Assembly: GCA_043800255.1 (NCBI GenBank)
Contig: JAZDNF010000009.1
Coordinates: 60,813 to 124,812, forward strand
From: Candidatus Altiarchaeota archaeon
GTDB taxonomy: Archaea; Altiarchaeota; Altiarchaeia; IMC4; SCGC-AAA252-I15
Length of the DNA stretch: 64,000 bases
Direction of reading: 5' to 3'
In this document: positions 29,948-62,993 of the stretch, piece after piece
How positions within the stretch are numbered: the stretch's first letter is position 1
Layout: each line of letters opens with the position of its first letter
The notes under the pieces: generated by a model
The model's database searches: none
Told to the model about the DNA's origin: nothing
The model's input: only the letters and a program-made list of their open reading frames with translations
Program-made: the position numbers and the translations under genes

Positions 29948-29948
29948 T

Positions 29949-33139: not shown

Positions 33140-33142
33140 CGT

Positions 33143-34186: not shown

Positions 34187-34220
34187 GTGTTTTATACCTC
34201 CAATTGGATTTATTAGTAAT

Positions 34221-37146: not shown

Positions 37147-38130
37147 TCAGTATCGCGCCTTCCCCTTAAGCGCTTCGACGTTCTCCGAGCCTGTCAGGAA
37201 CATCGCTATCCTGAATTCCTTTAACGTTTTCTGCACGTACTCCCTGACTCCTCCCTTCTTCTTCCTTTCCCATGCCTTCAGCAGCGGCAGTGCAATCCCA
37301 GCGCATGACGCTCCCATCGAAACAGCCTTGGCAATGTCTATCCCGGACCTCACGCCCCCGGAGGCGACTAATGGCATTCCAATGTCCTTCAGCTGGATTA
37401 TGCAATCCGCGGTCGGCATTCCCCAGCCTGCGAACGACATGCCGACGTCGTTCCCGCTCCGGTAGCTCTCGACCACGCTCCATGATGTGCCGCCTACGCC
37501 GCCAACGTCTATGGCCGATACTTTCAGTTTCTTGGCGTCGTCTAATGAGACGCCGCTGCCGACGCCCTTCACTATCAGGGGCACGTCCAGCTTCTTCGCA
37601 ATCTCGTTTATCTTCTTCGTCAGGCCTTCGAAGTTGGTGTCGCCCTCAGGCTGCACCGCCTCCTGCAGGGGGTTGACGTGCAACGCCAGCGCGTCGGCGC
37701 CTATCATCTCAACCGCTTTCCTGCACTCTTCCAGCCCGTAGCCGCAGTTCAGCTGCACTGCTCCGAGGTTTGCTATCAGGAAGGCACCGGGAGCGACATC
37801 CCTCACACGATAGGTGTCCGCGACCTTAGGGTCTTCCAGGGCCGCCCGCTGGCTTCCGACTCCGAAGCCTATCCCGAACTCCTGAGCAACCGCAGCCAAG
37901 TCCCTGTTTATCCTCTTTGACATTTTAGTGCCGCCGGTCAACGCCTCGATTATTAGGGGAAATCTGAGGCTCTTGCCCAGGAAACTGGCTTCCGTGCTTA
38001 TCTTGTCTAAGTCCAGTTCCGGAAGCTCCGTGTGCGGCAGGCTCACCTTCTCGAAGCCTGCGCTGCCTGCCTCAACGTCCCTGCTGAGGCATATCCTCAG
38101 GTGCTCTGTCTTCCGGTCTGTCGTAGCCAT
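37147..38130 (-). CDS. fni: Type 2 isopentenyl-diphosphate isomerase
   Basis: RKTEHL, ALTGG, GVGSQR, NLGAVQ, HVNPLQE, GGTSWS. Confidence 0.96.
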   Translation of the reverse strand: MATTDRKTEHLRICLSRDVEAGSAGFEKVSLPHTELPELDLDKISTEASFLGKSLRFPLIIEALTGGTKMSKRINRDLAAVAQEFGIGFGVGSQRAALEDPKVADTYRVRDVAPGAFLIANLGAVQLNCGYGLEECRKAVEMIGADALALHVNPLQEAVQPEGDTNFEGLTKKINEIAKKLDVPLIVKGVGSGVSLDDAKKLKVSAIDVGGVGGTSWSVVESYRSGNDVGMSFAGWGMPTADCIIQLKDIGMPLVASGGVRSGIDIAKAVSMGASCAGIALPLLKAWERKKKGGVREYVQKTLKEFRIAMFLTGSENVEALKGKARY

Positions 38131-38136
38131 TCGTTA

Positions 38137-39126
38137 CTAATAGTTCCTCTCTATTATATAATCAGCCACATCAAGGAGGTTGCTTTTCGCCTCAGAGTCC
38201 TTGAGAACCTTCAGCCTGCCTTTTGCGTCCTCTGTCATGCTCTTGACCATATTCTGGGCGTATTCTATCGCCCCGCTATCAGTTATCAGTTCTATCGCTT
38301 CCCTGACCGCCTGCTCGCTTTTGCTGCTTCTCTCCATGAGACCAATAAGCTGCTTTTTCTCTTTAGCTTTCAGGTTGTTCAGCGCATAGATGACTAGAAT
38401 GCTCTTCTTTTTCTTCCTGATGTCGCTTCCTATCGGTTTGCCGAGCTTCTTCTGGTCTGCGATGACGTCCAAGAGGTCGTCGTGCATCTGGAATGCGGTC
38501 CCTATAGAGTCTCCGAAGGATGATAGCGCATTTATCTCCTCTCTCGAGCCGCCTCCGAGTATGGAGCCTATCCTCAGCGACGCATTCAGCATCACCCCCG
38601 TCTTCTTCCGTATCATCTCCATATAGTCGTCGATGCCGATCCGGTCCATGTTCTCGAACATCATGTCAAGTATCTGGCCTTCATGTATTTCGGAGTTGGC
38701 CCAGTTGAGGACTCCAAGGGCGTCAAGCACCTTGCCGTCTGATATGCCATTCTCCCTCACATCGACGAGAGCCGCATAGGCTTTGGAGTAGAGCGTGTCC
38801 CCGACGATGATTGCCATGTCAACCCCCCATTTGGCGTGCACTGTCGGCTTGCCTCGCCTCTCAAGGTCCCTGTCGACTATGTCGTCATGGACCAATGTAA
38901 AAGTGTGCAGCAGCTCTATCGATGCAGCCGCAGGAAGCACCTTCATCACGTCTCCGCCGACGGCCTCGCATGCGAGCATCGTAAGCACAGGCCGTATCCT
39001 CTTGCCGCCAGCCCCGACCGTGTGCTGGAGCATCGTCTCTATCTTCTTGTTCTCGCTTCTCGTGTATTCGAGAAGCACCGGCTGCACCAGCTCCGCCTTC
39101 CTCCTGATGAAATCTCTGACGTCCAT
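38137..39126 (-). CDS. idsA: Geranylgeranyl diphosphate synthase
   Basis: GGKRIRP; FARM HTFTLVHDDIVD with Phe at -5; SARM FQMHDDLLD. Confidence 0.93.
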   Translation of the reverse strand: MDVRDFIRRKAELVQPVLLEYTRSENKKIETMLQHTVGAGGKRIRPVLTMLACEAVGGDVMKVLPAAASIELLHTFTLVHDDIVDRDLERRGKPTVHAKWGVDMAIIVGDTLYSKAYAALVDVRENGISDGKVLDALGVLNWANSEIHEGQILDMMFENMDRIGIDDYMEMIRKKTGVMLNASLRIGSILGGGSREEINALSSFGDSIGTAFQMHDDLLDVIADQKKLGKPIGSDIRKKKKSILVIYALNNLKAKEKKQLIGLMERSSKSEQAVREAIELITDSGAIEYAQNMVKSMTEDAKGRLKVLKDSEAKSNLLDVADYIIERNY

Positions 39127-39145
39127 TGTAAGTTATTGGTAGAAC

Positions 39146-39805
39146 TTAAAATAAACCCTCAAGGACGTGAACGTTGACGACCTCGAGGGTGTCGACGATC
39201 ATGTTCGGCTTCTCTTTTTTCAGATGCTCTCTCCTGTGGTTTCCTGTGGTCACTGCTATGACCTTCATCTTCGCCCTCCTGGCGGCCTGAACTCCGAATG
39301 GTGAGTCTTCAAGGACAACGCAGTCTTCTGGCTTTGCTCCTAACCTCTCGGCGGCCTTCAGGAAGATGTCCGGGTTGGGTTTGCCGTTCTCGACATCGTT
39401 GAATGTTGCTATCGCGTCAAAGTACTGCCAGAGGCCTGCGGCTTTCAGCACCAACTCTGTTGTGGACGTATTCGATGATGTGCCGACCGCGGTTTTGATG
39501 CCTTTCTCTCTCAGCTCCTTGAGGAGTTCGCGGACGCCGGGCAGCACTTTAACATCGTCGCCCAGCGTCTGTTCAACAATCCTTGAACGTTCCAGCGCCA
39601 GCTTCCTCGTGTCAGCCTTGATGTCCTTTTCCTCGAAGAACATGTCCATGATCTGGTCGCCTCTTAGCCCATAACCTTTCATCAGGTCTTCTGCCGTGAA
39701 GTTCAGGTTGAACTGCTCTTCTATGACTCTCTGGAACGCCTTCAGATGGGTTTCGAATATGTCAACGGTCGTCCCGTCCAGGTCGAATATCACAGCCTTC
39801 AGCAT
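39146..39805 (-). CDS. HAD-superfamily phosphatase (beta-PGM/CbbY-like)
   Basis: DLDGT, GKPNPDIF, EDSPFG. Confidence 0.9.
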   Translation of the reverse strand: MLKAVIFDLDGTTVDIFETHLKAFQRVIEEQFNLNFTAEDLMKGYGLRGDQIMDMFFEEKDIKADTRKLALERSRIVEQTLGDDVKVLPGVRELLKELREKGIKTAVGTSSNTSTTELVLKAAGLWQYFDAIATFNDVENGKPNPDIFLKAAERLGAKPEDCVVLEDSPFGVQAARRAKMKVIAVTTGNHRREHLKKEKPNMIVDTLEVVNVHVLEGLF

Positions 39806-39871
39806 AGTTCTAAAGTAATCAAAGTACAATATTAAATGCTGTTCCAATCGTCTAAAGTCTTGCTGAGATGC

Positions 39872-41920
39872 TCAGATGAACAGCGGCGCCAACACCAGCG
39901 TGAGGGTGCTGAGCAGTTTTATCAGTACGTGGATTGACGGCCCCGCGGTGTCCTTGAACGGGTCGCCTAGGGTGTCGCCTATGACAGCAGCCTTGTGCGC
40001 GTCGCTCCCCTTCCCGCCGTAAGTCCCCTCCTCGATGTACTTTTTTGCGTTGTCCCATGCGCCGCCGCCCGTGTTAAGCATCAAAGCCATCAGTATGCCC
40101 GTGATCGTGCTTGTCATCAGATAGGCTCCAACAGCTTCGGCATGCAGCAGTAGGCCGACGATTATTGTCAGGACAACCACGAATACGCCTGGCAAAACCA
40201 TCCCCTTCAACGCGGTTTTAGCGCAGATGTCGACGCATTTGGCATAGTCTGGCTTTGCTTTCCCTTCCATAAGCCCTTCAATCTCCCTGAACTGCCTTCT
40301 GACCTCGTTGACAACTTCAAACGCCGTGTTGCTGACCGCCCTTATCGCGAATGATGCGAACAGGAACACCAGCATCGCCCCGAACATGCCGCCGACGAAC
40401 ACAGGAACCTTTGACAGGTCTATTACCGGAACGCTTCCGGTGTACTTCGCAACCTCGTCCAGATACGCTGAGAACAGTAGGAACGCTGCCAGAGCTGCTG
40501 AGCCTATCGCATACCCTTTTGTCAGAGCCTTTGTCGTGTTCCCGACAGCATCCAACCTGTCGGTTATCTTTCTGAATTTGTCAGCCTGCCCTGACATCTG
40601 GTTTATGCCGCCCGCGTTGTCTGTGATCGGGCCGAAACTGTCCATAGCCAGTATGAAAGCGCACGTGCTCAGCATGCCCATGGTGGCGATCGCCGTCCCG
40701 TACAGGCCGCCGTTGGATATTCCAGACCACATTCCAAAATCGTAGGCCAGTAGTAATGCTATGCCCAAAACGATTATGGGCAGAGCTGTTGTCTCCAGCG
40801 CGACGGCGAAGCCTGCGATTATGTTTGTGGCGCTGCCTGTCAGAGACGCCTTCGCTATTGACTTTACAGGAGCGTAAGACTGCTCGGTGTAGTAGACCGT
40901 TATCCAGACTATCAGGATTGACGTGATTATTCCCAGCAGCCCGGACATGAAAAACCAGAACCAGTAATCCTTCAACATTACGTACGTTGTGATCGCAAAG
41001 AGCACCGCAGCCAATGCCGCGGTTACGTAGTAGCCCCTGTTCAGCGAAGTCATCGGGTCCTCGTCTTTTTTGTTGTACACCGAGAGTATTCCGATTATGC
41101 TGGCTACCAGCCCGGACGCCCTTGCCACCAGCGGGAACAGGATTCCAGCGATTCCGAAAATCGGGTACAATGCCACGCCCAGGATCATGGCGCCTATGTT
41201 CTCAGCAGCCGTTGACTCGAAGAGGTCTGCGCCTCTGCCGGCGCAGTCTCCGACGTTGTCGCCGACGAGGTCGGCTATGACAGCGGGATTTCTCGGGTCG
41301 TCTTCTGGTATGCCCTGCTCGACTTTTCCGACGAGGTCGGCGCCGACATCAGCCCCTTTGGTGTAGATTCCGCCGCCGAGCTGCGCGAACAAGGCGACGA
41401 ATGACGCCCCGAAGCCGAACCCGACAATCATGAACGGGACCTCTGTGATCGGCAGAGTCAGCGAATAGAGATGGTAGATTATGCTGACGCCAAACAGTGA
41501 CATCGCCACTATTATTATCCCGGAAACTGCCCCGCCCCTCAATGCTATCTTCAGCGCCTCGTCCAGGCTTCTTCTGGATGCTGCCGCAACTCGTATGTTC
41601 GCCCTGACCGATATCCACATGCCGATGATTCCCGCCAGTCCGGAGCAGAACGCACCGAAGAGGAATGCAATCGCCGTCTTAAAACCGAAATCAGACTTTC
41701 CGATAAAAGCGTATACCGCAATGATTAGGATTCCGACAACCAGCGACATTACCGCTATTGTGGTGTACTGTCTCCTGACAAACGCGTTCGCGCCATCCTT
41801 GATGGCATTAGAGATATCCTGCATCTCCTTGGTTCCGGAGTCCTTTTGGAGAACATGGTAAGCCAGATATCCTGCGAACAAAAAGGAAAGGATGCTTATC
41901 CCAAAGACCAGTTCTAACAA
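39872..41920 (-). CDS. hppA: Membrane H+-translocating pyrophosphatase, probably K+-independent
   Basis: GGGIYTKGADVGADLVGKVE, DNVGD; GNTTKALTKG (Lys variant linked to K+ independence); TTG start with GGTGA RBS. Confidence 0.95.
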   Translation of the reverse strand: MLELVFGISILSFLFAGYLAYHVLQKDSGTKEMQDISNAIKDGANAFVRRQYTTIAVMSLVVGILIIAVYAFIGKSDFGFKTAIAFLFGAFCSGLAGIIGMWISVRANIRVAAASRRSLDEALKIALRGGAVSGIIIVAMSLFGVSIIYHLYSLTLPITEVPFMIVGFGFGASFVALFAQLGGGIYTKGADVGADLVGKVEQGIPEDDPRNPAVIADLVGDNVGDCAGRGADLFESTAAENIGAMILGVALYPIFGIAGILFPLVARASGLVASIIGILSVYNKKDEDPMTSLNRGYYVTAALAAVLFAITTYVMLKDYWFWFFMSGLLGIITSILIVWITVYYTEQSYAPVKSIAKASLTGSATNIIAGFAVALETTALPIIVLGIALLLAYDFGMWSGISNGGLYGTAIATMGMLSTCAFILAMDSFGPITDNAGGINQMSGQADKFRKITDRLDAVGNTTKALTKGYAIGSAALAAFLLFSAYLDEVAKYTGSVPVIDLSKVPVFVGGMFGAMLVFLFASFAIRAVSNTAFEVVNEVRRQFREIEGLMEGKAKPDYAKCVDICAKTALKGMVLPGVFVVVLTIIVGLLLHAEAVGAYLMTSTITGILMALMLNTGGGAWDNAKKYIEEGTYGGKGSDAHKAAVIGDTLGDPFKDTAGPSIHVLIKLLSTLTLVLAPLFI

Positions 41921-41949
41921 AGTATCACCCCACGACAGCCATGTTCTAT

Positions 41950-41968
41950 TATGACATAGTATGACATA
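41950..41968. promoter_or_regulatory. Tandem TATGACATA x2 (10-bp period) between the TATA-like box and the start of hppA; candidate operator
   Basis: Two exact 9-mers at 41950 and 41960, each a near-palindrome; TTTAAATA on the minus strand near 41983-41990. Confidence 0.45.
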
Positions 41969-42022
41969 ACATATTGTAATGATATTTAAAAATCACGTTC
42001 AGGGAAACTATTCTGGAAAAGA

Positions 42023-43984
42023 TCAGCCCTTTATGCCGAACGATTCTCTGACGTATCTGTCCATCGCCTGCGTGGCAGTCTCATCGGCGTCGGTTGAACT
42101 GGTTATCCTGTCCTTCAGCCCGCTGATGACGTTCGTGAGCTTCTTGTACCCTTTCTCAGCTCTCTCCTTCAGGTTCACGTCGGTTATCGTCCTGAGTTCA
42201 GCTCCTACTGGCCCGGCCTTCAACGCTGCCCTTAGTATGAGCTGCGTCTTTGTCGTAGGCGTCTTAAGCGCATCCCTTAGCTCTGTGACGTCCTCACCGA
42301 GGGCTTCAAGCCCGTCGGCGACATCCGGGAGAACCTTTGCTAGCTGCTCTATGAACCCTCTCTGCTCGTCAGGCCTCAGCTGCCCGAAGTAGTCTGCCAT
42401 CAGCTCCTGCCCCCTTCGCACCTCATCTCTGGTCTTCTCACTCTCTTCTCTCACAACCTCTCTTGTCCTCTCGCCTTCACCTTTACCAACCTGCTCGACA
42501 GTCCGTCTGGTCTTCTCGCTCTCCAGGGTTATCTGATTGCTTATCTGGTAGAGCTTTTGAAGCAGTTCTGATGTGCCGCCTTCTGAGACCGATTCAAGCT
42601 TTGATTTGGCGTCCTTCCACATCTGCACGAACCGGCTGGAGTCTTCTAGCACGTAGGACAGGTTCGTGGCCTGCTCGGAGGTTATCTTGAGCGCGCTCCT
42701 GAACAGCTTCGAGTAGGAGTACCCTTTGACACCCTCCGGAGCGTCCGGCATTTCAGCGAGCGATCTCTTCAGTTTTACCGTGAGCGCTATCTCATTAGCC
42801 CTTGAGGATATGAACCTCTCCTTCACCTCGTCGACTTCAGCGTTCCGGCCTGATTTCTTCATCTCAACGATGTCAGGGTCTACGGAGACTATGCCATCCA
42901 CCGCATCTCGGATGTCATCCTGCCGGACATCATAGCGTAGGGATATTTCCTTTACCATGTCGCCGTAGGGTCTGTCCAGCTTCGCCCCGAAGTACTGGGG
43001 TTCAACGTGTATGCCGAATCTGGTCTTCCCTAATCTTCCAACCGCTGCCGGCCTCTCAGTTATCCTGTGAAGCGACTCGACCTCGCCGTTCTTCAGCCTG
43101 AAGCCGTACTTTGCCGTTCTGCCCTCCTCAGTCACCTCGTGTATTTCCAGGTCGTCCCTCCCTTTTATCGGCATGCTCCCCCTCAGCTTCGACAGACCAT
43201 TCTTTCTCATCAGCCTAAGCCATGCGGCGTCTGACTGGCTGACCTCGCCGCCGACTTCCATCCTCCTGTAGTAGTTGTCTTCGGGGGAGACGATGAACAG
43301 GTAGGCGTCGAATGCTGAGCGTATCTTTCCCCCATCCTCGGCCCAGTTCTCTGAGATGCCGGTCACCTCCCCTTCGCTGTTGAATTTCAGGGCGACCGCT
43401 ACGTTGCCGGACTTGAAGGGTATCTCCTTCCTGTTGGGAGTGGTCTCGCTCACCGGGAGGTGAGCCAGCAGGTAGCATCCTTGGTCAGTGTTGATCGGAT
43501 TCTTGGTGACGTCGGGGTTTATCCTGATGAATCTGAAAGTGTTGATGTCTCCCAGACTGTTGGCGAATCCGTGGGCTGTCAGCTGGGCGAGAGCTTTCTC
43601 AACGCGGGGGTTTATGAAGTCCGGATTGGTGAGAGCCTGATACAGTTCGAGGTTCGAGGTCGCGCTGCCTTGGGGGTAAAGCGACCGGGGGTGGTTTCTC
43701 ACTCCCATCATCTTCTGGTCCTTCAGCAGAGCCTCCTCTTCTGAAATCGGGGCGAGAGTTGCCTTGTCTGCTTGCAGGACTCCTAGTTCTTTTGTCCTGA
43801 TGTTAGGGTCCTGCGAGAGGTAGTGTTTGAGCCTGTCAGTCGGCATGCGCGGTGATAGAAGTTCCCCGATCGGCTTCTCTGTTATCTCTCTCAGCAGGCT
43901 GGTCAGCTTTCCGACTTCCTCGGCCTGCTCTTCTTTTGGGAGGTCCTTTATTCTGGCGTTCCTGTCAACAGTCCTCTCGGCCAT
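42023..43984 (-). CDS. Orphan 653-aa protein with a coiled-coil C-terminus
   Basis: Long ORF filling the gap; 11-residue E(S/G)E(K/R)TR repeats. Confidence 0.7.
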   Translation of the reverse strand: MAERTVDRNARIKDLPKEEQAEEVGKLTSLLREITEKPIGELLSPRMPTDRLKHYLSQDPNIRTKELGVLQADKATLAPISEEEALLKDQKMMGVRNHPRSLYPQGSATSNLELYQALTNPDFINPRVEKALAQLTAHGFANSLGDINTFRFIRINPDVTKNPINTDQGCYLLAHLPVSETTPNRKEIPFKSGNVAVALKFNSEGEVTGISENWAEDGGKIRSAFDAYLFIVSPEDNYYRRMEVGGEVSQSDAAWLRLMRKNGLSKLRGSMPIKGRDDLEIHEVTEEGRTAKYGFRLKNGEVESLHRITERPAAVGRLGKTRFGIHVEPQYFGAKLDRPYGDMVKEISLRYDVRQDDIRDAVDGIVSVDPDIVEMKKSGRNAEVDEVKERFISSRANEIALTVKLKRSLAEMPDAPEGVKGYSYSKLFRSALKITSEQATNLSYVLEDSSRFVQMWKDAKSKLESVSEGGTSELLQKLYQISNQITLESEKTRRTVEQVGKGEGERTREVVREESEKTRDEVRRGQELMADYFGQLRPDEQRGFIEQLAKVLPDVADGLEALGEDVTELRDALKTPTTKTQLILRAALKAGPVGAELRTITDVNLKERAEKGYKKLTNVISGLKDRITSSTDADETATQAMDRYVRESFGIKG

Positions 43985-44072
43985 TGTACAATGTATATAC
44001 TAGTCTTTAGAAGATAAAAACCATTCATAAACCCATAGTAACATATGATAAATTGTCCTACTGACACATAAG

Positions 44073-44402
44073 ATGGATGCCAATAACCTTGAGATTATTC
44101 CAGAGGCCATAACCGTGCTAATCGTTGGCAGCGGCCTGCTCTCGAGCATGTACGTGCTCAGGAGGCTTATGGATTTCGAAGACTCAAAGGAGCAGATCAG
44201 GTTTTTTCTTCCCGTGATCTTAGGCATGATCTTGTTCCTGCTGGAGACGGTGGGAAATGCTGCCCACACGTTAGACTCAAACATCCTCGGCAGCTACGCC
44301 AAACTCTGGGAGGACGTTTTCCTGCTGGGAGAGGCTGTCTGCTTCGGGGCGTTCCTTTTCCAGATGAAAAAGGCCTTGATGCCGGCGCATCCTGGCGGCT
44401 AG
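44073..44402 (+). CDS. Small membrane protein (about 3 TM)
   Basis: Three hydrophobic segments; fills the gap before the GHMP kinase gene. Confidence 0.6.
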   Translation: MDANNLEIIPEAITVLIVGSGLLSSMYVLRRLMDFEDSKEQIRFFLPVILGMILFLLETVGNAAHTLDSNILGSYAKLWEDVFLLGEAVCFGAFLFQMKKALMPAHPGG

Positions 44403-44441
44403 CGGATTTAAATCGTCTGCCTTTTAATATTCTCTCACATT

Positions 44442-45380
44442 ATGGGCTACAGGAAGGTTAAGTCTGTCGCATATCCGGGGCTGCCGGTCATTTTCGCCGA
44501 AGGCTACAGGAAGACCAAGGGCAGGGTATCATATCATGACTCTGTCGGATTGTGCATTACAGACCTGAAGAGGCAGGTCAGGACTGAGACTGTCGTTGAG
44601 GGCGCTGACGATGGCGTGAGCTTCACTGTGGACGGTGAGGAACTTTCAGGCAACAGGGGCAGGGGCATGCTCAAAATCATCGAAATCATGCTCGAGAAGT
44701 CAGACTACAGAGGAGGGCTCAACGTAGAGTCCAAAAATCATGGGATACTGACAGGCAGCTCTGACTCGGGAGCTGCTGCACTTCTGACAGCCTTGGACTC
44801 TTTCCTAGGCCTCAATCTCCCGGATGATGAGCTCCTCGTCATCGGGCTCTGCGGCAGCGAGACCGTCTTCAGGAGCCTCTATGGGGGGCTCACAGAGTAC
44901 CGCGTTGGAGGGAGCAAGCCTGAGGCTGAGGTGCTGTCTGAAAGGCTTGGCGTTTCTATTTTCGCAGTCCCGTTCGATGTCGAACGCTATCCTGCGGATA
45001 AACTCCACAGGAGCGTGGTATCACATCCAGAGTATCCTAGGAGGGAGTCGTCAGTGAGGGAGAGGATAGACACGCTTAAGGCTTACGTTCGAAAAGGCAA
45101 CGTCGTCGGAGTCTTACAGTTGATGGAAGACGACGCGAGAGACTGCCACAGGATGTTCACCGAGACAGGCCATGAGGTGATAAAGCCAGAAATGCAGGAG
45201 CTCTGCGACCACGTTGAAAGCCTGAGGAAGAAGGGCCTGAACTCCTACTGGAACGTCTCGGGCGGCAGCGTCGTGTACGTCTTCTGCCCTGCTGATGAGG
45301 GTGAGAAGGTCGCTGGAGAGTTAGGCGGCAGGTGGAAGTGCGCCCAATACAAAACTGCTGTAGCGTCTAGGATTATTTAA
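44442..45380 (+). CDS. Mevalonate 3-kinase-like GHMP protein (MVD superfamily, no decarboxylase Asp)
   Basis: AYP, NHGILTGSSDSGAA, SETVFRSLYGGLT, ERYPADKLH, VSGGSVVYV. These parallel T. acidophilum Ta1305 motifs as I recall them. Confidence 0.75.
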   Translation: MGYRKVKSVAYPGLPVIFAEGYRKTKGRVSYHDSVGLCITDLKRQVRTETVVEGADDGVSFTVDGEELSGNRGRGMLKIIEIMLEKSDYRGGLNVESKNHGILTGSSDSGAAALLTALDSFLGLNLPDDELLVIGLCGSETVFRSLYGGLTEYRVGGSKPEAEVLSERLGVSIFAVPFDVERYPADKLHRSVVSHPEYPRRESSVRERIDTLKAYVRKGNVVGVLQLMEDDARDCHRMFTETGHEVIKPEMQELCDHVESLRKKGLNSYWNVSGGSVVYVFCPADEGEKVAGELGGRWKCAQYKTAVASRII

Positions 45381-45413
45381 TATCCCTGATCTAATCTCTA
45401 AAATCGGTGGTTT

Positions 45414-46349
45414 ATGATGGCTGAAGGCTACGGTTACGGGAAGACGATACTTTTCGGGGAGCATTTTGTCGTGTACGGTCTGCCTGCCATCGCCTCGGCG
45501 TTGGGCAGCAGGACCATTGCAACAGTCGAGAATTCGAAAAAGTACGAGCTGGTTGACAACAGGCCTGCGACGCCAGGCTACAAGAAGGAGAAGTACGACG
45601 AGCAGGTCGTGTCCAACGAGAACATCTTCAGATCATGTGGAGTCGACGTTCAGAGGACTCCAATCAGGATCACCCTAGGGGGCGACCTGACCGCAGCCTC
45701 CGGCGTTGGAGCTTCCGCAGCCTCTGCTGCCGCAATCGCGCGGGCGCTAAATGGGCACTTCAGTCTGGGGTTTAATGATGAGAATATCAATCAGATTGCT
45801 TATGAAGGCGAGAAGGGCTATCATGGTAAGCCGTCAGGCATAGATAACACTGCCGCAGTCTACGGGGGGCTCATCTGGTTCGTCAAAAATCTGGAGGGCG
45901 GCTCGAACACCATGGAAAGATTGGGTATGAAGGAGCCCTGCGAAATCGTCCTCGGCAACACTGGCCTAACCTCCAGCACCAAAAAAGTCGTCGCCGACGT
46001 CAAGGCCGACAAGGAGGCTGCGCCTGAAAAGTACAGGAGGATATTCGCAGACTACAGTGACATTGTGAGCTCCGCGAGGAAGGCTCTAACGTCAGGCAAA
46101 CTGGATAGGGTCGGCGAACTCATGAGCCAGAATCACAAGCTGCTTCAGGAGATTACAGTATCCTGCGAGGAGCTTGACCTCCTAGTGGAGACTGCGCTTA
46201 AGGCTGGAGCCTTCGGAGCGAAGCTTACTGGCACGGGCCGCGGCGGGCTGATGCAGGCTCTGACGCCCGGCAGGAAGCTGCAGGAGAAGGTTGCGAATGC
46301 TATCGAGGCGAAAGGATTCGCAACGTTCAGAACCAAGATTGGAGTCTAA
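45414..46349 (+). CDS. mvk: Mevalonate kinase
   Basis: GKTILFGEHFVVYG, SGVGASAA, HGKPSGIDN, GAKLTGTGRGG. Confidence 0.93.
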   Translation: MMAEGYGYGKTILFGEHFVVYGLPAIASALGSRTIATVENSKKYELVDNRPATPGYKKEKYDEQVVSNENIFRSCGVDVQRTPIRITLGGDLTAASGVGASAASAAAIARALNGHFSLGFNDENINQIAYEGEKGYHGKPSGIDNTAAVYGGLIWFVKNLEGGSNTMERLGMKEPCEIVLGNTGLTSSTKKVVADVKADKEAAPEKYRRIFADYSDIVSSARKALTSGKLDRVGELMSQNHKLLQEITVSCEELDLLVETALKAGAFGAKLTGTGRGGLMQALTPGRKLQEKVANAIEAKGFATFRTKIGV

Positions 46350-47185
46350 ACCCTGTGGTTGTCTGAGTATATGAGATGCGCTATCTCGGAGACTGAGTTT
46401 CTGTCCCAACCTGGTCCTTTCCTTCGGACTACATGCAGGGAGACTCCGCTGGCTTCGGAGATTCTTCTGATGATGGTTTCGTCAACCTTCTGATGGACTT
46501 TCTTGTCTGTGAGATCTTTTCCAGGCCTCTTCTCGAGTATCAGCTCAGGGTCCTGTGAGACCATCAGTATCGCATTAGGCCGGATAGTGTTGAAAGCTTC
46601 GGAATCCAAGGATACTATAAAACCATTTTTTCCGTAGAGTGTTGCATGAGATTCTATACAGTATGCCTTGCGGGGGTCGTCGCACATTTTCGCAACCTTT
46701 TTCGCAGTCCTTACCCTCAGGCGCTCCTGTTCGACAGGTGACATGTCCTTTATCTGACCTTTTCTGATGTTCTTTTCCTCCAGCGTCAGGTTCTGCATTT
46801 CATCGCCGAAGTTGATTGTTACAATCTTTTCGCCGCCTAATAGTTCGGTTGCCTTTCTCGTGGAGAGCGTCTTCCCTGCGCCTGAAACCCCCAGCAGTAG
46901 GAACACCTTAGGGCCGCCTGCCCGGGGTTCGAATTTTCCGTATTCTTTAAGTCCCATTTCAAACCCGTCCCTGTCCTCCAAGAGCGAGAGAGCTTCATCG
47001 TCTGTCAGCGTTTGCCCGCGCGCCTCCGCCTCCTCCAGCATCCGCCTGCCGAGGCCATGGGTTGGATCCTTCTTGTTCTTCAGGACGTCTCTCAGGGTTA
47101 TCGACTCAAAAGCCTGTCTGAAGAGCCTCTCATCGTCAGTCTCATCAGGGGAGTTTGGCTTCGGGCCTTTTCCTACTGTTTTCAT
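46346..47185 (-). CDS. Divergent archaeal adenylate-kinase (AdkA)-like P-loop kinase with an ~90-aa N-terminal extension
   Basis: GVSGAGKT, INFGDEM, Q.RL...AKKVA, IESHAT, PNAILMV. Confidence 0.7.
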   Translation of the reverse strand: MKTVGKGPKPNSPDETDDERLFRQAFESITLRDVLKNKKDPTHGLGRRMLEEAEARGQTLTDDEALSLLEDRDGFEMGLKEYGKFEPRAGGPKVFLLLGVSGAGKTLSTRKATELLGGEKIVTINFGDEMQNLTLEEKNIRKGQIKDMSPVEQERLRVRTAKKVAKMCDDPRKAYCIESHATLYGKNGFIVSLDSEAFNTIRPNAILMVSQDPELILEKRPGKDLTDKKVHQKVDETIIRRISEASGVSLHVVRRKGPGWDRNSVSEIAHLIYSDNHRV

Positions 47186-47190
47186 GGTGG

Positions 47191-47601
47191 TTAGAACTCT
47201 TTCGGCTTTTTCGCGTCAGGCAGCTCTTTCATGCTCGGCGGCGTAGCAGCCTCTTTTATCTCCGTGAACAAGCCCTTATTCACGCGATCAAGCAGGTTGG
47301 CTGCGAGGTTAGGTTCCATCTCCTTCAAGATGGGATTTTGCGGTTCTCTTGGGTTGTGGGCCGCGGTTTCCTGCAGCAGCTCGATGCCCTTCAGCAGTGT
47401 CAACTTATCTTCAACCGGAAGGCGGCTCGCATAATCGAGCACTCTGCCTTTGGACGGCTGCCTCAGAGAGTATACGATGTTCTGGATGCCTGATTCTCCA
47501 ACACTCCTCCCGATGAAGAATAGGAACCCGTTTATCGCGTTCCTGTCCTGGCCGCTGATCCTGTCAGTGCTCGAGTCCTCTTTAGTTTGCTGTACGGTCA
47601 T
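47191..47601 (-). CDS. Hypothetical protein
   Basis: 136-aa ORF co-oriented with, and 5 bp from, the kinase gene. Confidence 0.55.
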   Translation of the reverse strand: MTVQQTKEDSSTDRISGQDRNAINGFLFFIGRSVGESGIQNIVYSLRQPSKGRVLDYASRLPVEDKLTLLKGIELLQETAAHNPREPQNPILKEMEPNLAANLLDRVNKGLFTEIKEAATPPSMKELPDAKKPKEF

Positions 47602-47654
47602 CCTGATAACTAACTACTAGGTAAAACAAATCTAAAAGTAGTCTGGCAGGGGAA

Positions 47655-48038
47655 TTATCTGACGGTTACAGTGCCGCCGTCTATCCTGACAGTGGCGCCT
47701 GTCTTGATCTTATTGACATCAATCTTGTCAACTGCTGGGATGTCGCTGATTATGCACCCGACTGCGACTATCGTCTCCGCTTCAGAGTTTATCATCGCCT
47801 TCGGGGCTTTACCGTTCTTTGCAAGCTGGTAGATTGTATAAGGCGCTACAGTCGAGCCTTTGCCGTAGGGGAACACCAGAATCTTCCCTGTTATGCACTG
47901 CCCGTTGATGTCGCTGTCCTTGTCTGACATGATACCTGTCACAGGATCAACTCCGCCGTAGAAGCTTATCGGGTTCTTGCTGACCAAAGCCTCACCCTCC
48001 ACCGTCCCCTTGTTGATTATCCTGCCCTTCAGTTCCAT
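47655..48038 (-). CDS. Phosphomevalonate dehydratase small subunit (DUF126/AcnX swivel)
   Basis: ISFYGGVDPVTG, GKILVFPYGKGST, AETIVAVG; start MELKGR overlaps the large-subunit stop region. Confidence 0.9.
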   Translation of the reverse strand: MELKGRIINKGTVEGEALVSKNPISFYGGVDPVTGIMSDKDSDINGQCITGKILVFPYGKGSTVAPYTIYQLAKNGKAPKAMINSEAETIVAVGCIISDIPAVDKIDVNKIKTGATVRIDGGTVTVR

Positions 48039-49228
48039 TTTCCTGTCACCGCCGTGTTCAGGCACTGTTTGAAGTCGCCTATGTGGACGTTCAATTTGTT
48101 CTTGCCTCTCGCGTAGAAGCATGCTTTCGCACTTGTGGTGGCCATCGTCTTGAACCTGCCTTTTATGGGGGCGACGACCATGCAGGTGTCGACTGCCATC
48201 TTCCCGCCAGCCTGTTCGATCACTTGGGTGTAGCCTCTCTCGTCTGCGATATCCTTTGTCGGGCGGGCGGTGGCAACCCAGAGTTCAACGCCGTCCCTCA
48301 CCTTCCTGTTCTTCAGATAATCTGAAATCTCAGCTATCTCCTGGATTGACGCGTGCGGGCACCCCAGCGAGACGAAATCGACATCAGCCGCATCATCGTT
48401 CAATGCCTTATACGCTTCCTTCATGTCCTTGTCTGCCACAGTCACAGTCTCCTTGGGAGGCTTGTGCTGTGAGGCTTCAGGCGTTATCCCTCTTATGTGG
48501 TACAGGGGCGGGCTGCCGTAGGTTATAGCCGATGCTCCGAAGCTTTTCAGACTGTCTGTTGACGCCTGCTTCAGACCTGTGATATAAGGAACCTTGCCAT
48601 CGCTTGCCTTGCCAATCACGTAACCCAAGGCGCCCCAATCAGAAAGCGACTCTACTTTCGCGTCGACTTTGACATGAAATTTCGGAGCCCGATTCTCATC
48701 CAGATGCAGCCCATACGCTGGGGTCTTGCCTATCATCGCAGCAGCTATCGCTGAGGGGCCGCCTTCCCTGTTACTGCGGGCGCCTATGACGGAGTTCACG
48801 AAGGTTACCGCGCTGGATTCGGCCCAGGCGACGTGCTCTCCGAATGCTGGGAGGTTTCCGATCAGGTAGGGCGTGCACGTGCACGTCGTAATAACGCCCA
48901 TCTTCGCGAACGCCTCAACAACCTTCTTCTGCTTTGCCGCGAACTCGTCTGATATGCCGAGCTTCTTCCACTCGCGCATGTCCATCCCCGCAGGATTCAA
49001 CGTCGTGAGAACCTTCACCTGTCCGTCCCTGGCAAGCTCAGACAGGTACTCCAGACCAGCATCTCCGAGGTTGTCGTAGGATACGCCGGCAATCTGAACG
49101 CTTCCAACAGGGATAAGCCGCTCGGCGCCGTAGATCTCGCCCAATGCTATGAGAATCTTCATCGACTTCGCAGCTGCATTACCCTGCCCGCCCCCTAGGA
49201 TTTTCTCCTCCTCCCTTGTGAGTTCCAT
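48029..49228 (-). CDS. Phosphomevalonate dehydratase large subunit (DUF521/AcnX)
   Basis: TTLNP, CTCTPY, WAESSA...NSVIGARSNREGG, LGCPH, DTCMVV, TSAK. Confidence 0.92.
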   Translation of the reverse strand: MELTREEEKILGGGQGNAAAKSMKILIALGEIYGAERLIPVGSVQIAGVSYDNLGDAGLEYLSELARDGQVKVLTTLNPAGMDMREWKKLGISDEFAAKQKKVVEAFAKMGVITTCTCTPYLIGNLPAFGEHVAWAESSAVTFVNSVIGARSNREGGPSAIAAAMIGKTPAYGLHLDENRAPKFHVKVDAKVESLSDWGALGYVIGKASDGKVPYITGLKQASTDSLKSFGASAITYGSPPLYHIRGITPEASQHKPPKETVTVADKDMKEAYKALNDDAADVDFVSLGCPHASIQEIAEISDYLKNRKVRDGVELWVATARPTKDIADERGYTQVIEQAGGKMAVDTCMVVAPIKGRFKTMATTSAKACFYARGKNKLNVHIGDFKQCLNTAVTGKWN

Positions 49229-49293
49229 CCCCAGTTAAATTATTACCGGCCAAATAAAAAGCTTTTAAGCTTAGGAGGGGGATATTAACCACT

Positions 49294-50109: not shown

Positions 50110-50130
50110 GGCAGGCGTTCTCTGTGAGGA

Positions 50131-51417
50131 TTATTCTCCGAGTTTTACTTTCAGGAATTTTTGTTTGTTCTTTGATGAGGGTATGGTTGCGTCTAATGCG
50201 ACTTTGGCTGTCTGCCGTCTGTCTGAGCCTTCCATGCATTCTGCGGTGCAGTCCAATGATGAGCCCGGGCCTTTGAATATGTTCGCCCTCTTGTCGGCCT
50301 GGACTCGGGTCGCTATCGCCCATTCTATCTCATCCGGGCTGTAGATGTTGATATCGTCGTCTACCACGATGCAGTGTTTGAGGCTGCCGTGTCCTTTGAA
50401 GGCTGCGTCAGCAGCCTTTTTTCCGTCGTCATCGTTCTTCTTTGATATCTGGACTATGGCATGGAACCATGAGCAGCCTCCGACAGTGAGGAGCACGTTC
50501 TTCACGTCAGCGACCTCTTTTACCGCATTGTATATTGTCGGCTCCTTGGGCATTCCCATCAGCAGCCTGTGCTCATTATAAGCAGGGAGGAGGCCCTGAT
50601 AGATCGGGTCCTTCCGGTGGGTTATGCAGTTGATTGTGACTACTGGCTCCTCTCTGACGACGTCCGCAGTCCCGGTGATGTCCGGGAACGGGCCCTCCTT
50701 GGCGCGTTCCTTCTGCGTGAGAGTTCCCTCGAGTATTATCTCAGCGTCTGCCGGCACCAATAAGTCGTTGGTTTTGCACTTGACCAGCTCGACCGGCTTC
50801 ATCGTGTTCGCGATGTCATACTCACTCAAGTCTGATTTCGCGGAAATTGATGCCGCCAGCGATATTGTCGGATGCAACCCCAAACAGATTGCAACAGGCA
50901 GCGGATCCTGAGCCTGAAGGTTCTTGTAGGTGTCCCGGTGGCATATCCTCGCAACCAGCTTGTTCTTCGCTATGGGTGAGGCCCTGTGATATGCCAGGTT
51001 CAGTATGCTGTCCTTGTTAGAGCTGACCCAGACTCCGGCGCTAACGTAAGGCCCTAGATCGTTGGTGCAGTGGGTGAGTATCGGCATCTTCGAAAGATCA
51101 ACGTCTTTTTCCACGACCTCCTGGCAGGCGCCCTTCTTCACAGCCTTCGGTTTCGTGGGTTTGCCTATTACGTCGGCTATCTTGAACAGCAGGTCTTCTT
51201 TTTTTATCCCCAATGCCTTCGCGAAGTTCTCCCTGCTGCTGCATAAGCCGGCGGCAACCTTGTACTCGGAGCCTTTGACCTTGGTGAATAGCACGGCTTT
51301 GCCGTCGTATTCCATCAGGACCCTAGCCATCTCAAGGTAGGGGTCAACTTCCCTGTCGAATTTAACGAGCTGTCCTGCCCTGTCAAGCTCGTCCAAAAAG
51401 GCGCGCATGCTCATCAC
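50131..51417 (-). CDS. UbiD-family decarboxylase, likely anhydromevalonate-phosphate decarboxylase (AMPD)
   Basis: EGPF motif, VDDDINIYSP..IEWAIATR, GSSLD; clustered with PMDh, IPK and UbiX. Confidence 0.85.
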   Translation of the reverse strand: MMSMRAFLDELDRAGQLVKFDREVDPYLEMARVLMEYDGKAVLFTKVKGSEYKVAAGLCSSRENFAKALGIKKEDLLFKIADVIGKPTKPKAVKKGACQEVVEKDVDLSKMPILTHCTNDLGPYVSAGVWVSSNKDSILNLAYHRASPIAKNKLVARICHRDTYKNLQAQDPLPVAICLGLHPTISLAASISAKSDLSEYDIANTMKPVELVKCKTNDLLVPADAEIILEGTLTQKERAKEGPFPDITGTADVVREEPVVTINCITHRKDPIYQGLLPAYNEHRLLMGMPKEPTIYNAVKEVADVKNVLLTVGGCSWFHAIVQISKKNDDDGKKAADAAFKGHGSLKHCIVVDDDINIYSPDEIEWAIATRVQADKRANIFKGPGSSLDCTAECMEGSDRRQTAKVALDATIPSSKNKQKFLKVKLGE

Positions 51418-51500
51418 AAATCACCCGCTTAGATATAGTCTTTAAAAAAAATAAGCGATATAATATGTCCCAATGGACCTGTTCACCGAAGCCATTGCAT

Positions 51501-52283
51501 TCAACATCTGATTACCGTGCCTTTGACTTTCTTCCCTAGGAGGGCATCCCTGACGTTGCCTCTTTTGAGGGCGCTTATGATTTTGGCTTCGGTCTCTGAT
51601 GACATGATCTCCCTGACTTTGCCTTCCATCCCTCCTGTGACGTCGGTCGCCTTCGAGCCGGATAGTTTGATCCTGGAGATGTTCTTTTTGGTTATCAGCG
51701 GGATGTGCATTCCGCCGCCATTTTTCGGGTCTCTGTCGTATATGCCGTCGACGTCGGTCGCAATTACCATCCTCTTGGCTTTCAGCTTTTTGGCGATGTA
51801 GGGCGCAAGCTGGTCTCCTGAGAGTATCCCCACCCCCCGTTTTATGTCTATGAGCACGTCGCCGTAGGATACGGGGACCATCCCTATCTGGAGCATCATC
51901 CTGATTGTGTTCACCGGGAACTGCACTAGCTTCCCGTCTTCGAGGATGCCGCCTGCTGAGGGTTGGAATGATATGGCGTTCACGCCATTCTTCTGGAGCG
52001 TTTCGACGACGTCCTGGTTGAGCTTCTCCATCGACTGGTGCGTTATCGAGAAGCCTATGACCTGCCTCTTTGATTTCAGCCCCCCTTTCAGCTTGTGCTT
52101 TTTGGCGGGGACGTGTCCGAAGGGCCCTGCGCCGTGGACTATCACCAGCCGGGTCCTCTTCTCATTCAATGCTGAGGCTATCTCCGACGATAGCCTGCCC
52201 AGGTTCTTCTTGTTGATTTCCAGCTTATCCTGCGACTTTTTGGTTATCACCGAGCCGCCGAGCTTCAGCACCACGGTCTCCAT
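51501..52283 (-). CDS. ipk: Isopentenyl phosphate kinase
   Basis: VLKLGGSVITKK, HGAGPFGH, YGDV, LSGDQL, TDVDGIY, DVTGGM.GK. Confidence 0.93.
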   Translation of the reverse strand: METVVLKLGGSVITKKSQDKLEINKKNLGRLSSEIASALNEKRTRLVIVHGAGPFGHVPAKKHKLKGGLKSKRQVIGFSITHQSMEKLNQDVVETLQKNGVNAISFQPSAGGILEDGKLVQFPVNTIRMMLQIGMVPVSYGDVLIDIKRGVGILSGDQLAPYIAKKLKAKRMVIATDVDGIYDRDPKNGGGMHIPLITKKNISRIKLSGSKATDVTGGMEGKVREIMSSETEAKIISALKRGNVRDALLGKKVKGTVIRC

Positions 52284-52306
52284 TGTAATGAATTTTGAAT
52301 GAGGGA

Positions 52307-53149: not shown

Positions 53150-54492
53150 TTCAGCGCTTCCATCAGTGCTTTTGCCTTGTCCAAGGTCTCCTGGTATTCT
53201 TTCTCAGGGTCTGAGTCTGCCACTATGCCGCCTCCGACTTGGAAGTAGGCTCTCCCATCTTTTAGGATATATGATCTTATTATGATATTCAGGTCCATGT
53301 TGCCGTTGAAGCTCAGGTAACCTATGGCTCCGGTGTAGGCGCTCCTCTTGGTCGGTTCAAGTTCGTCTATTATTTCCATGGCTCTGACTTTGGGCGCGCC
53401 GGTGATGGACCCCCCTGGAAAAGTTGCCCGGAGTATGTCCACCTGATTTACGTCTTCCCTGAGTCTGCCTTCTACTGCGGAGACCATCTGGAACACTGTC
53501 GCATATTCTTCTATTATCTCAAACTCTGACACCTTGACTGTCCCATATTCGCACACCTTTCCCAGGTCGTTTCTTTCCAAGTCTACTATCATGATATTCT
53601 CAGCCCGGTCTTTTTCGCTCTCCTCCAACTCTTCTTTCAGTTTCCTGTCTTCTTCCCTGTCCTTTCCTCTCGGCCTCGTCCCCTTTATGGGGCGTGTCTC
53701 GATATGCCTGCCTTCCACTTTGAGGAATCTTTCAGGGGATGCGCTCACAACTTGCACGTCTCCGAAGTTCAGGAAAGCTGCGAATGGAGCAGGGTTTATC
53801 TCTCTCAGCCTCTTGTAGAGCTGCCAGAGGTCTGCTTCTGTTTCTGCTGTGAATCTCTGTGACAGGTTCACCTGGTATATGTCTCCTTTTCTGATGTATT
53901 CTTTAGCCTTTGTTATCGCTTTCAGGTAGTCTTCTTTTCTGAAGTTGGATTCCACATTGGGCGGTTTCAGAGTCGCCTCTCCCTTCTTTTCCGCTGGCTG
54001 GGAGGCCAGCTTCAGCAGCTCTTCTTTTCCATCTTCCGACTGTGAGATGAGAGTGTATTCCCTTTTGAGGTTATCGTAGGCTATTATGCTGTCGTAGAAT
54101 CCCAGGCAGCAGTCCCACGCTCTTATGTCGTCTGCCGCTTTGTTGGGCAGGCCTTTTATCGTGAATTTTCCGAGGTCGTATCCGAAGTACCCTACGGCAC
54201 CGCATTGGAAGGGGAATCTTTTTTTCTCGTATCTTTTCCCGTGTCTTTTGAGCAGCTTTCTCAGGACATCGAATGGGTTTCCTCTGGTCTCTTCTGCTTC
54301 CCCGTCCTTTTCGATCAGTATCCTGTCGTCTTTCGTCTTCAGGACTAGGAAGGGGTTGCAGCTCATGTAGCTGTTCCTTCCCAGCTTCTCGTGGTTCATC
54401 CCGCTGTCCAGGAAAAAGCTGTTAGCCTCGCCTGAGATTCTTTCGAATATCTCTGCAGGAGGTTGTCCCAGTCTTATCTTCTCCTCTGTCAT
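53146..54492 (-). CDS. pabB: Aminodeoxychorismate synthase component I
   Basis: SPERFL, PIKGTRPRG, IVDLERNDLG, FPGGSITGAPK (PabB-like rather than TrpE-like). Confidence 0.88.
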   Translation of the reverse strand: MTEEKIRLGQPPAEIFERISGEANSFFLDSGMNHEKLGRNSYMSCNPFLVLKTKDDRILIEKDGEAEETRGNPFDVLRKLLKRHGKRYEKKRFPFQCGAVGYFGYDLGKFTIKGLPNKAADDIRAWDCCLGFYDSIIAYDNLKREYTLISQSEDGKEELLKLASQPAEKKGEATLKPPNVESNFRKEDYLKAITKAKEYIRKGDIYQVNLSQRFTAETEADLWQLYKRLREINPAPFAAFLNFGDVQVVSASPERFLKVEGRHIETRPIKGTRPRGKDREEDRKLKEELEESEKDRAENIMIVDLERNDLGKVCEYGTVKVSEFEIIEEYATVFQMVSAVEGRLREDVNQVDILRATFPGGSITGAPKVRAMEIIDELEPTKRSAYTGAIGYLSFNGNMDLNIIIRSYILKDGRAYFQVGGGIVADSDPEKEYQETLDKAKALMEALK

Positions 54493-55043
54493 CACTTGCC
54501 TTCCCATTTCCTGTAGAGTTTGTGTTCTATTCCGAGGACGTCGAGTATCTTTCCCACGATGAAGGCTGACATGTCGTCTGCCGTCTCAGGCTTGTGGTAG
54601 TATGCGACTTCGGGTGGGAGTATTATGGCTCCTCCCATCTTCAGCTTTCTCATGTTCTCTATGGCTGCCAGCGTGAGTGGGGTTTCTCTTGGCACTACTA
54701 TCAGCTTCCATCCCATCTTGAGCATGTTCTCCGCGGCCCTCGTCACCAGGTTATCGGAGTAGCCGTTCGCGACTCCTGAGAGCGTCTTCATCGAGCATGG
54801 CACTATGACCATCCCGTCAACCTTGTATGAGGAGGAGGCTATCTTCGCCATCAGGTTGTCCTCATCGTATGAGCGTGATGCTAGCTTCCTTATCTCCTTC
54901 GGGCTCTTGTTCTCCTCGAACCGGGCGACATCCTCCGCTGCTGAGGTCATTATCAGGTGAGTCTCATGGCCTCTGAGCTCTTCCAGCAGCCTCTGACCTA
55001 GTATTATCCCTGAGGCGCCGGTGATGGCTATTATCAGCTTCAT
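54492..55043 (-). CDS. ubiX: Flavin prenyltransferase UbiX
   Basis: AITGASG, ASSS, PCSMKTL, RETPL, AYYHKP. Confidence 0.95.
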   Translation of the reverse strand: MKLIIAITGASGIILGQRLLEELRGHETHLIMTSAAEDVARFEENKSPKEIRKLASRSYDEDNLMAKIASSSYKVDGMVIVPCSMKTLSGVANGYSDNLVTRAAENMLKMGWKLIVVPRETPLTLAAIENMRKLKMGGAIILPPEVAYYHKPETADDMSAFIVGKILDVLGIEHKLYRKWEGK

Positions 55044-58994: not shown

Positions 58995-59094
58995 CTTGCG
59001 TATATACATAGGGTGAGGCGAGTATTTAAATGTTTCGATTTTAAGAAACAATTGTTTTCGAACATGAAAACATTCTCGGACAGCGTAAGAAGAG

Positions 59095-59224: not shown

Positions 59225-59246
59225 ACAACAAAAGAAGGTTCATAGT

Positions 59247-62984: not shown

Positions 62985-62993
62985 GGATTAGAG

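Follow-up and report, generated by a model that had tools for sequence, protein, structure and literature searches.

The stretch of DNA analysed here (the window, 64,000 nucleotides from a Candidatus Altiarchaeota archaeon) carries at positions 44442–46349 two neighbouring open reading frames (ORFs): a gene whose product belongs to the family of mevalonate 3-kinase (M3K), an enzyme known from the Thermoplasmatales, and the mevalonate kinase gene mvk (product MVK) directly downstream. Both ORFs were found as given in a preliminary description of this DNA. The locus comprises the following features:

44405..44441, plus strand: AT-rich stretch with the TATA-like boxes TTTAAAT and TTTTAATATT, about 20–35 nt 5′ of the ATG of the M3K-like gene (from reading of the sequence)

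44442..45380, plus strand: M3K-family GHMP kinase of the Altiarchaeota 'FAEG' subfamily, 312 aa (from Pfam, NCBIfam, residues, tree and model)

45414..46349, plus strand: mevalonate kinase (5-kinase), 311 aa (TIGR00549, 230.5 bits, cut-off 163)

The ORF at 44442–45380 was matched by the Pfam model M3K_C (PF21433; 71 bits, cut-off 27) and, in its N-terminal part, by MVD-like_N (PF22700; 57 bits). The best NCBIfam model was mevalonate-3-kinase (NF040848; 158.5 bits), and the models for phosphomevalonate decarboxylase (PMD) and diphosphomevalonate decarboxylase (DMD) scored 77.8 and 34.1 bits, respectively. The closest solved relative was Ta1305, the M3K of T. acidophilum (4rkp; E 6.3e-33, runner-up 1.5e-07). 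An AlphaFold2 model prepared with 38 homologues as input (mean pLDDT 95) likewise gave the Ta1305 structures 4rkz and 4rkp as top PDB matches (TM 0.90, 27% identity), with DMD and PMD ranking behind them. A word-indexed search yielded 56 homologues at 35–60% identity, and those with a named organism were nearly all Candidatus Altiarchaeota, which agrees with the earlier guess of a gene of DPANN archaea. Among species-representative genomes the nearest match was 49% identical. In the alignment of 38 subfamily sequences 22 columns were invariant, among them those of the GSSDS P-loop, Glu140 and Arg144; with 56 homologues, these invariant columns and the mean pLDDT of the model, the ORF is not a chance ORF. 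The protein is confirmed as a member of the M3K family, in a subfamily distinct from Ta1305.

The active-site residues were compared with Ta1305 (residues 1–291, reconstructed from a printed alignment), which was aligned with 182 family members and then with all fetched loci. VSGGS (residues 271–275) of the M3K-like protein aligns with VTGGS (Thr275) of Ta1305 and with DAGPN/DTGAT of the decarboxylases, so the catalytic Asp is absent; the Thr275/catalytic-Asp position is occupied by Ser272, which is Ala in most relatives. GSETVFRS aligns with VSESAGRS of Ta1305 (SETVFRS opposite SESAGRS), and Glu140 and Arg144 are kept, being numbered alike in the two proteins by coincidence. VIFAEG aligns with VVLLGG of Ta1305 and IKYWGK of the decarboxylases; Phe18 thus takes the place of the catalytic Lys found in decarboxylases, and Glu20 adds an acidic residue. 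The preliminary description had named the missing Asp, the retained Glu in GSETVFR and the deviating N-terminal loop, and the alignment bore out all three. The numbering of Ta1305 used for the decarboxylase Asp and Lys positions (Thr275 and Leu18) is reportedly that of Vinokur (2015). The P-loop reads GSSDSGAAA. The 38 subfamily sequences show no variation in the P-loop, Glu140 and Arg144 and very little in the motifs FAEG and WNVAGG; Glu20 occurs in at least 90% of them.

Ta1305 (4RKP/4RKS/4RKZ) and the M3K of P. torridus (both EC 2.7.1.185) share with the M3K-like protein the MVD-like GHMP fold and M3K_C, the GSSD P-loop, Glu140, Arg144, [S/A]DxxH, a hydrophobic residue in place of the catalytic Lys, the lack of the catalytic Asp, and their clade. 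The motifs GSSD[SA], SE[ST]xxRS and [SA]DxxH are common to Ta1305 and to the Thermoplasmatales and Altiarchaeota proteins. In comparison with Ta1305, the M3K-like protein has FAEG for LLGG (hence the extra Glu20), Ala or Ser for Thr275, and Tyr or Phe for Gly143.

PMD and DMD (e.g. 6N0X, 3QT5) have the same fold, the same ATP site and an equivalent of Arg144, but they are only 18–20% identical to the M3K-like protein and differ in the Lys of IKYWG[KN], in SGS (SGSAxRS) for SE[ST], and in the catalytic Asp of DAGPN/DTGAT; no member of the M3K family carries Asp at position 275. This Asp is conserved in DMD, PMD and bisphosphomevalonate decarboxylase (MBD) and not in M3K, its mutation abolishes decarboxylation in DMD and MBD, and the exchange D281T/V converts the DMD of S. 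solfataricus into a pure 3-kinase (PMC9254496). The protein might be an atypical phosphomevalonate or mevalonate decarboxylase that carries out elimination and decarboxylation without the canonical Asp, in keeping with its MVD fold and with the weaker but real matches to decarboxylase models. Such a function is nevertheless very improbable in view of Ser/Ala in place of the Asp and Phe in place of the Lys, the loss of decarboxylation upon mutation of the Asp in DMD and MBD (PMC9254496), the location of Glu140 and Glu20 where the phosphate would bind, and the placement within the M3K clade described next.

The phylogeny was calculated by a distance method only (neighbour-joining, Kimura distances, 69 sequences, 309 columns, 100 bootstraps). 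The M3K family was monophyletic with the decarboxylases outside (bootstrap 99/100); within it, the Altiarchaeota clade received 97/100 and the Thermoplasmatales clade 81, and the tree gave no resolved branching order among the M3K subclades. A profile search of 1.84 billion representatives brought up 49 proteins with E values no higher than 1e-30; M3K sequences with the signature of the Thermoplasmatales were reached at 1e-44 to 1e-63, and decarboxylases from 6e-39 downwards. The protein thus groups with M3K rather than with the decarboxylases, as had been supposed. Genome loci were fetched with flanks of up to 10 kb (50 in total, 23 of them from Altiarchaeota). Among all of these, FAEG-type genes were met in Altiarchaeota loci only, in no case beside a gene for mevalonate 3-phosphate 5-kinase (M3P5K); the FVAS/FVSS and LLLCG types adjoin an M3P5K gene, and the LLGG/VTGG type is that of the Thermoplasmatales. 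Both subfamily genomes with a published GTDB assignment belong to the order IMC4. Judged from alignment and tree, the FAEG subfamily is a separate branch of M3K, met here only in Altiarchaeota.

In the literature, no M3K homologue was detectable outside the Thermoplasmatales in 2016 (PMC5177888), a few Micrarchaeota were added as carriers in 2018 (PMC6107057), and the M3K tree of a study from 2024 includes Altiarchaeota sequences (PMC11052028). In Table S3 of the latter, M3K is listed for two of the four Altiarchaeota genomes. GCA_014727915 (L009, shown also in its Fig. 3a), whose protein belongs to the FAEG subfamily and is 44% identical to the one described here, has the same gene set as the window: MVK, isopentenyl phosphate kinase (IPK), AcnX1/2, AMPD (the decarboxylase for trans-anhydromevalonate 5-phosphate) and M3K are present, and M3P5K, MBD, PMD and DMD are absent. 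GCA_902384455 (LFW-28, L032) contains MVK, phosphomevalonate kinase (PMK), DMD and M3K, and is without AcnX, AMPD and IPK. M3P5K and MBD are scored as zero in both high-quality IMC4 genomes. The preliminary description had made its reading depend on the co-occurrence of M3K with MVK and the archaeal route being new. This co-occurrence (M3K, MVK and AcnX/AMPD) is already tabulated for an Altiarchaeota genome in PMC11052028, which in part undercuts that reading, and it is unexplained there: GCA_014727915 is filed as an M3K homologue, neither Altiarchaeota case is discussed in the text, and the paper is silent on the mvk operon, the subfamily signature and the missing partners. Further literature searching gave nothing more specific on Altiarchaeota M3K.

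The M3K-like gene and mvk are separated by 33 nt, and a Shine–Dalgarno-like GGTGG lies nine bases before the ATG of mvk. This short gap, together with the TATA-like boxes upstream of the M3K-like gene, makes co-transcription plausible; the two genes are likely co-transcribed, and the AT-rich stretch at 44405..44441 is possibly the archaeal promoter of the unit. The wider cluster contains the following features:

37147..38130, minus strand: type 2 isopentenyl diphosphate isomerase (IDI2), last gene of a HAD–GGPPS–IDI2 unit (TIGR02151, 391 bits, cut-off 281)

38137..39126, minus strand: short-chain (GGPP-type) polyprenyl diphosphate synthase (GGPPS; family match)

39146..39847, minus strand: HAD-IA/beta-phosphoglucomutase-family phosphatase, first gene of the same unit (family match)

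46346..47185, minus strand: P-loop protein with a divergent archaeal adenylate-kinase-like domain, 279 aa (66 bits, cut-off 155)

47655..48038, minus strand: AcnX small (swivel) subunit, putative small subunit of phosphomevalonate dehydratase (PMDh) (NF003046, 179.5 bits, cut-off 163)

48029..49228, minus strand: AcnX large subunit, putative PMDh large subunit (PF04412, 514 bits)

50131..51417, minus strand: UbiD-family decarboxylase, putative AMPD (TIGR00148, 353.7 bits; position between AcnX and IPK)

51501..52283, minus strand: IPK (NF040647, 240.9 bits, cut-off 120)

54492..55043, minus strand: UbiX flavin prenyltransferase, supplying the UbiD enzyme with prFMN (NF004685, 217.8 bits, cut-off 188)

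With MVK, the two AcnX subunits, UbiD, UbiX, IPK and the isomerase, the archaeal (PMDh/AMPD) route is complete within 37147–55043, the assignments of AcnX as PMDh and of UbiD as AMPD being putative ones from family membership and synteny. The statement of the preliminary description that these genes lie close to the M3K-like gene held for PMDh large and small subunits, UbiD, IPK, UbiX, IDI2 and GGPPS, all within about 10 kb. The HAD–GGPPS–IDI2 unit is tight (gaps of 19 and 6 nt). The AcnX small subunit was listed as an ORF of 155 aa (47655–48122) that overlaps the large subunit gene by 94 nt; its true start is probably at 48038, because the profile match begins at Met29, and this start leaves a 10-nt overlap with the stop of the large subunit gene, as is typical of translational coupling.

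The arrangement in the 23 Altiarchaeota loci is HAD–GGPPS–IDI2 (minus), M3K-like–MVK (plus), AcnX small–AcnX large–UbiD (minus). The M3K-like gene directly adjoins mvk in the window and in ten other loci, the two genes are 2–6 kb apart in four Altiarchaeota loci, and in two further ones mvk was not seen within the available flank; the remaining Altiarchaeota contigs end too early for adjacency to be judged. The HAD gene lies directly upstream of the M3K-like gene, in divergent orientation, in 17 related loci; in the window, insertion of a Na+/H+-pyrophosphatase, a 653-aa ORF and a 109-aa ORF has parted the two genes. The pyrophosphatase (39872–41920, minus strand) was matched by NF001953 with 1027 bits, and the 653-aa ORF (42023–43984, minus strand) has no family match. 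The conserved operon position, the intact ORF and the 22 invariant columns, which include P-loop, Arg144 and Glu140 at 35–60% identity, make it hardly credible that the gene is a non-catalytic or decaying relic of an earlier pathway, as might otherwise be thought from its want of an obvious pathway role and from its patchy occurrence in Altiarchaeota (the two of four genomes in Table S3).

Several neighbours were considered as partners of the M3K-like protein and rejected. The assignment of the HAD phosphatase is generic (beta-PGM/PpaX-like), so that no substrate could be inferred; the protein resembles PpaX-type pyrophosphatases, so its target may be PPi and not a phosphate of mevalonate. The genes that separate the M3K-like gene from mvk in two loci (L008, L014) code for a class IV aminotransferase, a chorismate-binding enzyme, a PEMT-like protein, spermidine synthase, a radical SAM protein and TatC, none of them mevalonate-related. 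An aminotransferase of this class and a chorismate-binding enzyme (a PabB/ADC-lyase-like pair) also stand between IPK and UbiX in the window (52307–54507, minus strand), and in L008 (4145–8609) the pair lies beside the M3K-like gene (2.2 kb apart, three ORFs between); the two genes form a syntenic block that accompanies the isoprenoid cluster. The P-loop protein at 46346–47185, which has an N-terminal extension of about 90 aa, is convergent with mvk, the 3′ ends overlapping by 4 nt. It was dismissed as a candidate M3P5K, since the weak adenylate kinase match is the sole one it has, only its Walker A motif aligns with the M3P5K profile (hhalign probability 3%) and its position is not conserved among related loci. 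In LFW-28 the counterpart of this protein is a genuine adenylate kinase, encoded some 1 kb downstream of the M3K-like gene.

The partner enzymes of the Thermoplasma-type route are represented in NCBIfam by the models NF008996 (M3P5K, Ta0762-like) and NF040847 (MBD). With M3P5K-like proteins from outside the Altiarchaeota as queries, tblastn gave no match in the 64 kb of the window or in any of the 23 Altiarchaeota loci, and no second gene of the MVD superfamily, as a candidate MBD, was found in the same DNA. Among the top 120 proteins found with the M3P5K profile, the named matches came from Micrarchaeota, Aenigmarchaeota and Thermoplasmatales only and none from Altiarchaeota, which is a weak negative because few of the matches are named. 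With Table S3 giving the same picture, the second, Thermoplasma-type lower route suggested in the preliminary description is not supported.

Outside the Altiarchaeota, an M3P5K-like gene adjoins the M3K homologue in seven DPANN loci (L021, L024, L026, L027, L030, L031, L036). The homologues of Micrarchaeota and other DPANN archaea ('FVAS/FVSS', 'LLLCG') belong to the same family. Their neighbours are an M3P5K-like gene and, in many cases, IPK or an MVD-like decarboxylase; this gene set, recognisable as Thermoplasma-type or mixed, is absent from the Altiarchaeota subfamily. In L024 (9992–14224, from an uncultured DPANN-like archaeon) the order is M3K-like, M3P5K-like, DMD-like decarboxylase (TIGR01240, 259 bits), a 157-aa ORF and MVK; this locus mixes Thermoplasma-type and classical enzymes and is another case of co-occurring M3K and MVK. 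Fusion proteins were also examined as a clue to partners. The sole fusion involving the M3K family was M3P5K::M3K from a Thermoplasmatales-like lineage (P0079, 547 aa; M3P5K at residues 8–201 with 213 bits for NF008996, M3K at residues 220–545 with 369 bits), the others being MVK::DMD and DMD::PMK; no fusion of the FAEG subfamily was among those found. The Thermoplasmatales are without MVK, which M3K replaces, and have both M3P5K and MBD, whereas the M3K-like gene of the window is followed after 33 nt by a genuine MVK gene, lies within a complete MVK-based pathway and has neither partner nearby. Since M3P5K and MBD are missing from the window, the Altiarchaeota loci and the IMC4 genomes of Table S3, the gene is taken not to belong to a complete pathway of the Thermoplasma type.

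From these observations, the M3K-like protein is probably a non-decarboxylating, ATP-dependent 3-hydroxyl kinase that acts on a substrate unphosphorylated at C5 (mevalonate or a close analogue) in an auxiliary step. Arg144 would hold the C1 carboxylate of the substrate and the GSSDSGAAA loop the ATP, from which the gamma-phosphate would be passed to the tertiary 3-hydroxyl group. With Ser272 (Ala in most relatives) and Phe18 replacing the Asp and Lys of the decarboxylases, the 3-phosphate would be released as the product and no CO2 eliminated. The diphosphate-binding regions of classical MVDs are positions 17–21, 139–141 and 192–196, and the ATP and carboxylate regions common to these enzymes and M3K are positions 12, 101–111 and 144 (PMC4357925). 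Because Glu140 and the subfamily-specific Glu20 fall in the (di)phosphate-binding regions of the decarboxylases, the expected substrate would be (R)-mevalonate, or a near analogue of it, rather than mevalonate 5-phosphate. Motoyama et al. (2019) reportedly found that Glu140 excludes mevalonate 5-phosphate. The gene would probably be co-transcribed with mvk inside the conserved supercluster HAD–GGPPS–IDI2, M3K-like–MVK, AcnX–AcnX–UbiD. The subfamily occurs with either lower pathway, AcnX/AMPD in GCA_014727915 and PMK/DMD in LFW-28; this independence of lower-pathway type and the missing partners point to an auxiliary or side-branch function on the pool of free mevalonate and not to a second route to isopentenyl diphosphate (IPP).

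Several points weigh against a mevalonate 3-kinase function. The protein is only about 28% identical to Ta1305 and does not reach the equivalog cut-off of NF040848 (158.5 bits against 440), a cut-off that also leaves out M3K homologues in M3K–M3P5K operons, such as those of Micrarchaeota and other DPANN archaea (114–214 bits), and the natural M3P5K::M3K fusion. Exchanges in the substrate pocket (L19→A, G20→E, G143→Y/F, T275→A/S) have remodelled it, so that mevalonate may not be the substrate. The absence of M3P5K and MBD covers 64 kb here, flanks of at most 10 kb elsewhere and one published table. We know of no use for mevalonate 3-phosphate in an organism lacking both enzymes, and the physiological role given above is for this reason a default rather than demonstrated.

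The remodelled pocket is also an argument for a neofunctionalised paralogue, such as the preliminary description had considered, i.e., a kinase for another small hydroxy acid or a mevalonate derivative, or one with an isoprenoid function besides IPP synthesis. The near-invariant FAEG for LLGG, Tyr/Phe143 for Gly and Ala/Ser for Thr275 fall in those parts that in homologues touch the substrate's C5 end (PMC4357925), the gene is independent of the type of lower pathway, and the M3K of P. torridus already takes 3-hydroxyisovalerate and 3-hydroxybutyrate. The tight, conserved linkage to mvk and the isoprenoid cluster, in contrast, favours a mevalonate-related substrate, and the carboxylate-binding Arg144 as well as Glu140 are retained; we regard a changed function of this kind as the less likely reading.

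The conserved pairing with mvk can be read in another way, as a hybrid lower route in which the M3K-like protein and MVK, the latter standing in for M3P5K, make mevalonate 3,5-bisphosphate, from which an unrecognised activity removes the 3-phosphate to give either trans-anhydromevalonate 5-phosphate (feeding UbiD) or isopentenyl phosphate. Such a route would offer an ATP-driven way around the Fe-S dehydratase. It is consistent with the family-wide presence of a 5-kinase beside M3K (M3P5K in Micrarchaeota and other DPANN archaea, with one fusion; MVK in Altiarchaeota), with the operon-like appearance of the M3K-like/mvk pair, and with AcnX/UbiD and IPK further along the cluster. However, neither Table S3 nor tblastn of the loci provided an MBD-like or other candidate for the eliminating enzyme, the acceptance of mevalonate 3-phosphate by MVK is only presumed, and the adjacency of mvk may merely reflect the clustering of all mevalonate-pathway genes. 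Moreover, LFW-28 carries the subfamily together with PMK and DMD and is without AcnX, AMPD and IPK, so that the role of the protein is not tied to PMDh; the O2-tolerant bypass of PMDh proposed in the preliminary description is unlikely on account of the same genome. The hybrid route is considered rather improbable. That it would amount to a fifth, hybrid lower mevalonate route via mevalonate 3,5-bisphosphate, a living intermediate between the MVK-based and the Thermoplasma-type pathways, is an improbable conclusion as well.

Elsewhere in the window, the GC content falls from about 0.53 to 0.36–0.46 at 57559–64000. This region resembles a defence island and was probably acquired horizontally; it contains an AbiEii-like nucleotidyltransferase (57559–58224, weak match), a Shedu SduA_C nuclease domain (59928–60920), a Schlafen/AlbA_2 protein (60920–62149) and several ORFs without a family. 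A 424-aa fusion of an OMP-decarboxylase/HUMPS-family domain and an RraA-like domain is encoded at 8446–9720 (minus strand). The region 23255–37133 holds a block of surface/pilus genes coding for a T2SS-E ATPase, two T2SS-F proteins, a DUF2226 protein, a VWA-domain protein (886 aa), a 752-aa protein and a 1041-aa FG-GAP/beta-propeller protein with a C-terminal membrane anchor.

M3K was at first reported to be confined to acidophilic Thermoplasmatales and to take the place of MVK. The distinct, conserved subfamily described here apparently shares an operon with MVK; its hosts, neutrophilic Altiarchaeota, already possess a complete lower pathway, and the two enzymes from which the known purpose of M3K derives were not found with it. 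The value of the finding is limited in that the co-occurrence is already in literature tables and the function is not fixed by the present evidence. Either there is an unrecognised fate or function of mevalonate 3-phosphate, or the FAEG subfamily has a new substrate; both answers bear on current models for the evolution of the four mevalonate pathway variants from each other. The subfamily might also provide a new 3-hydroxy-acid kinase for pathway engineering.

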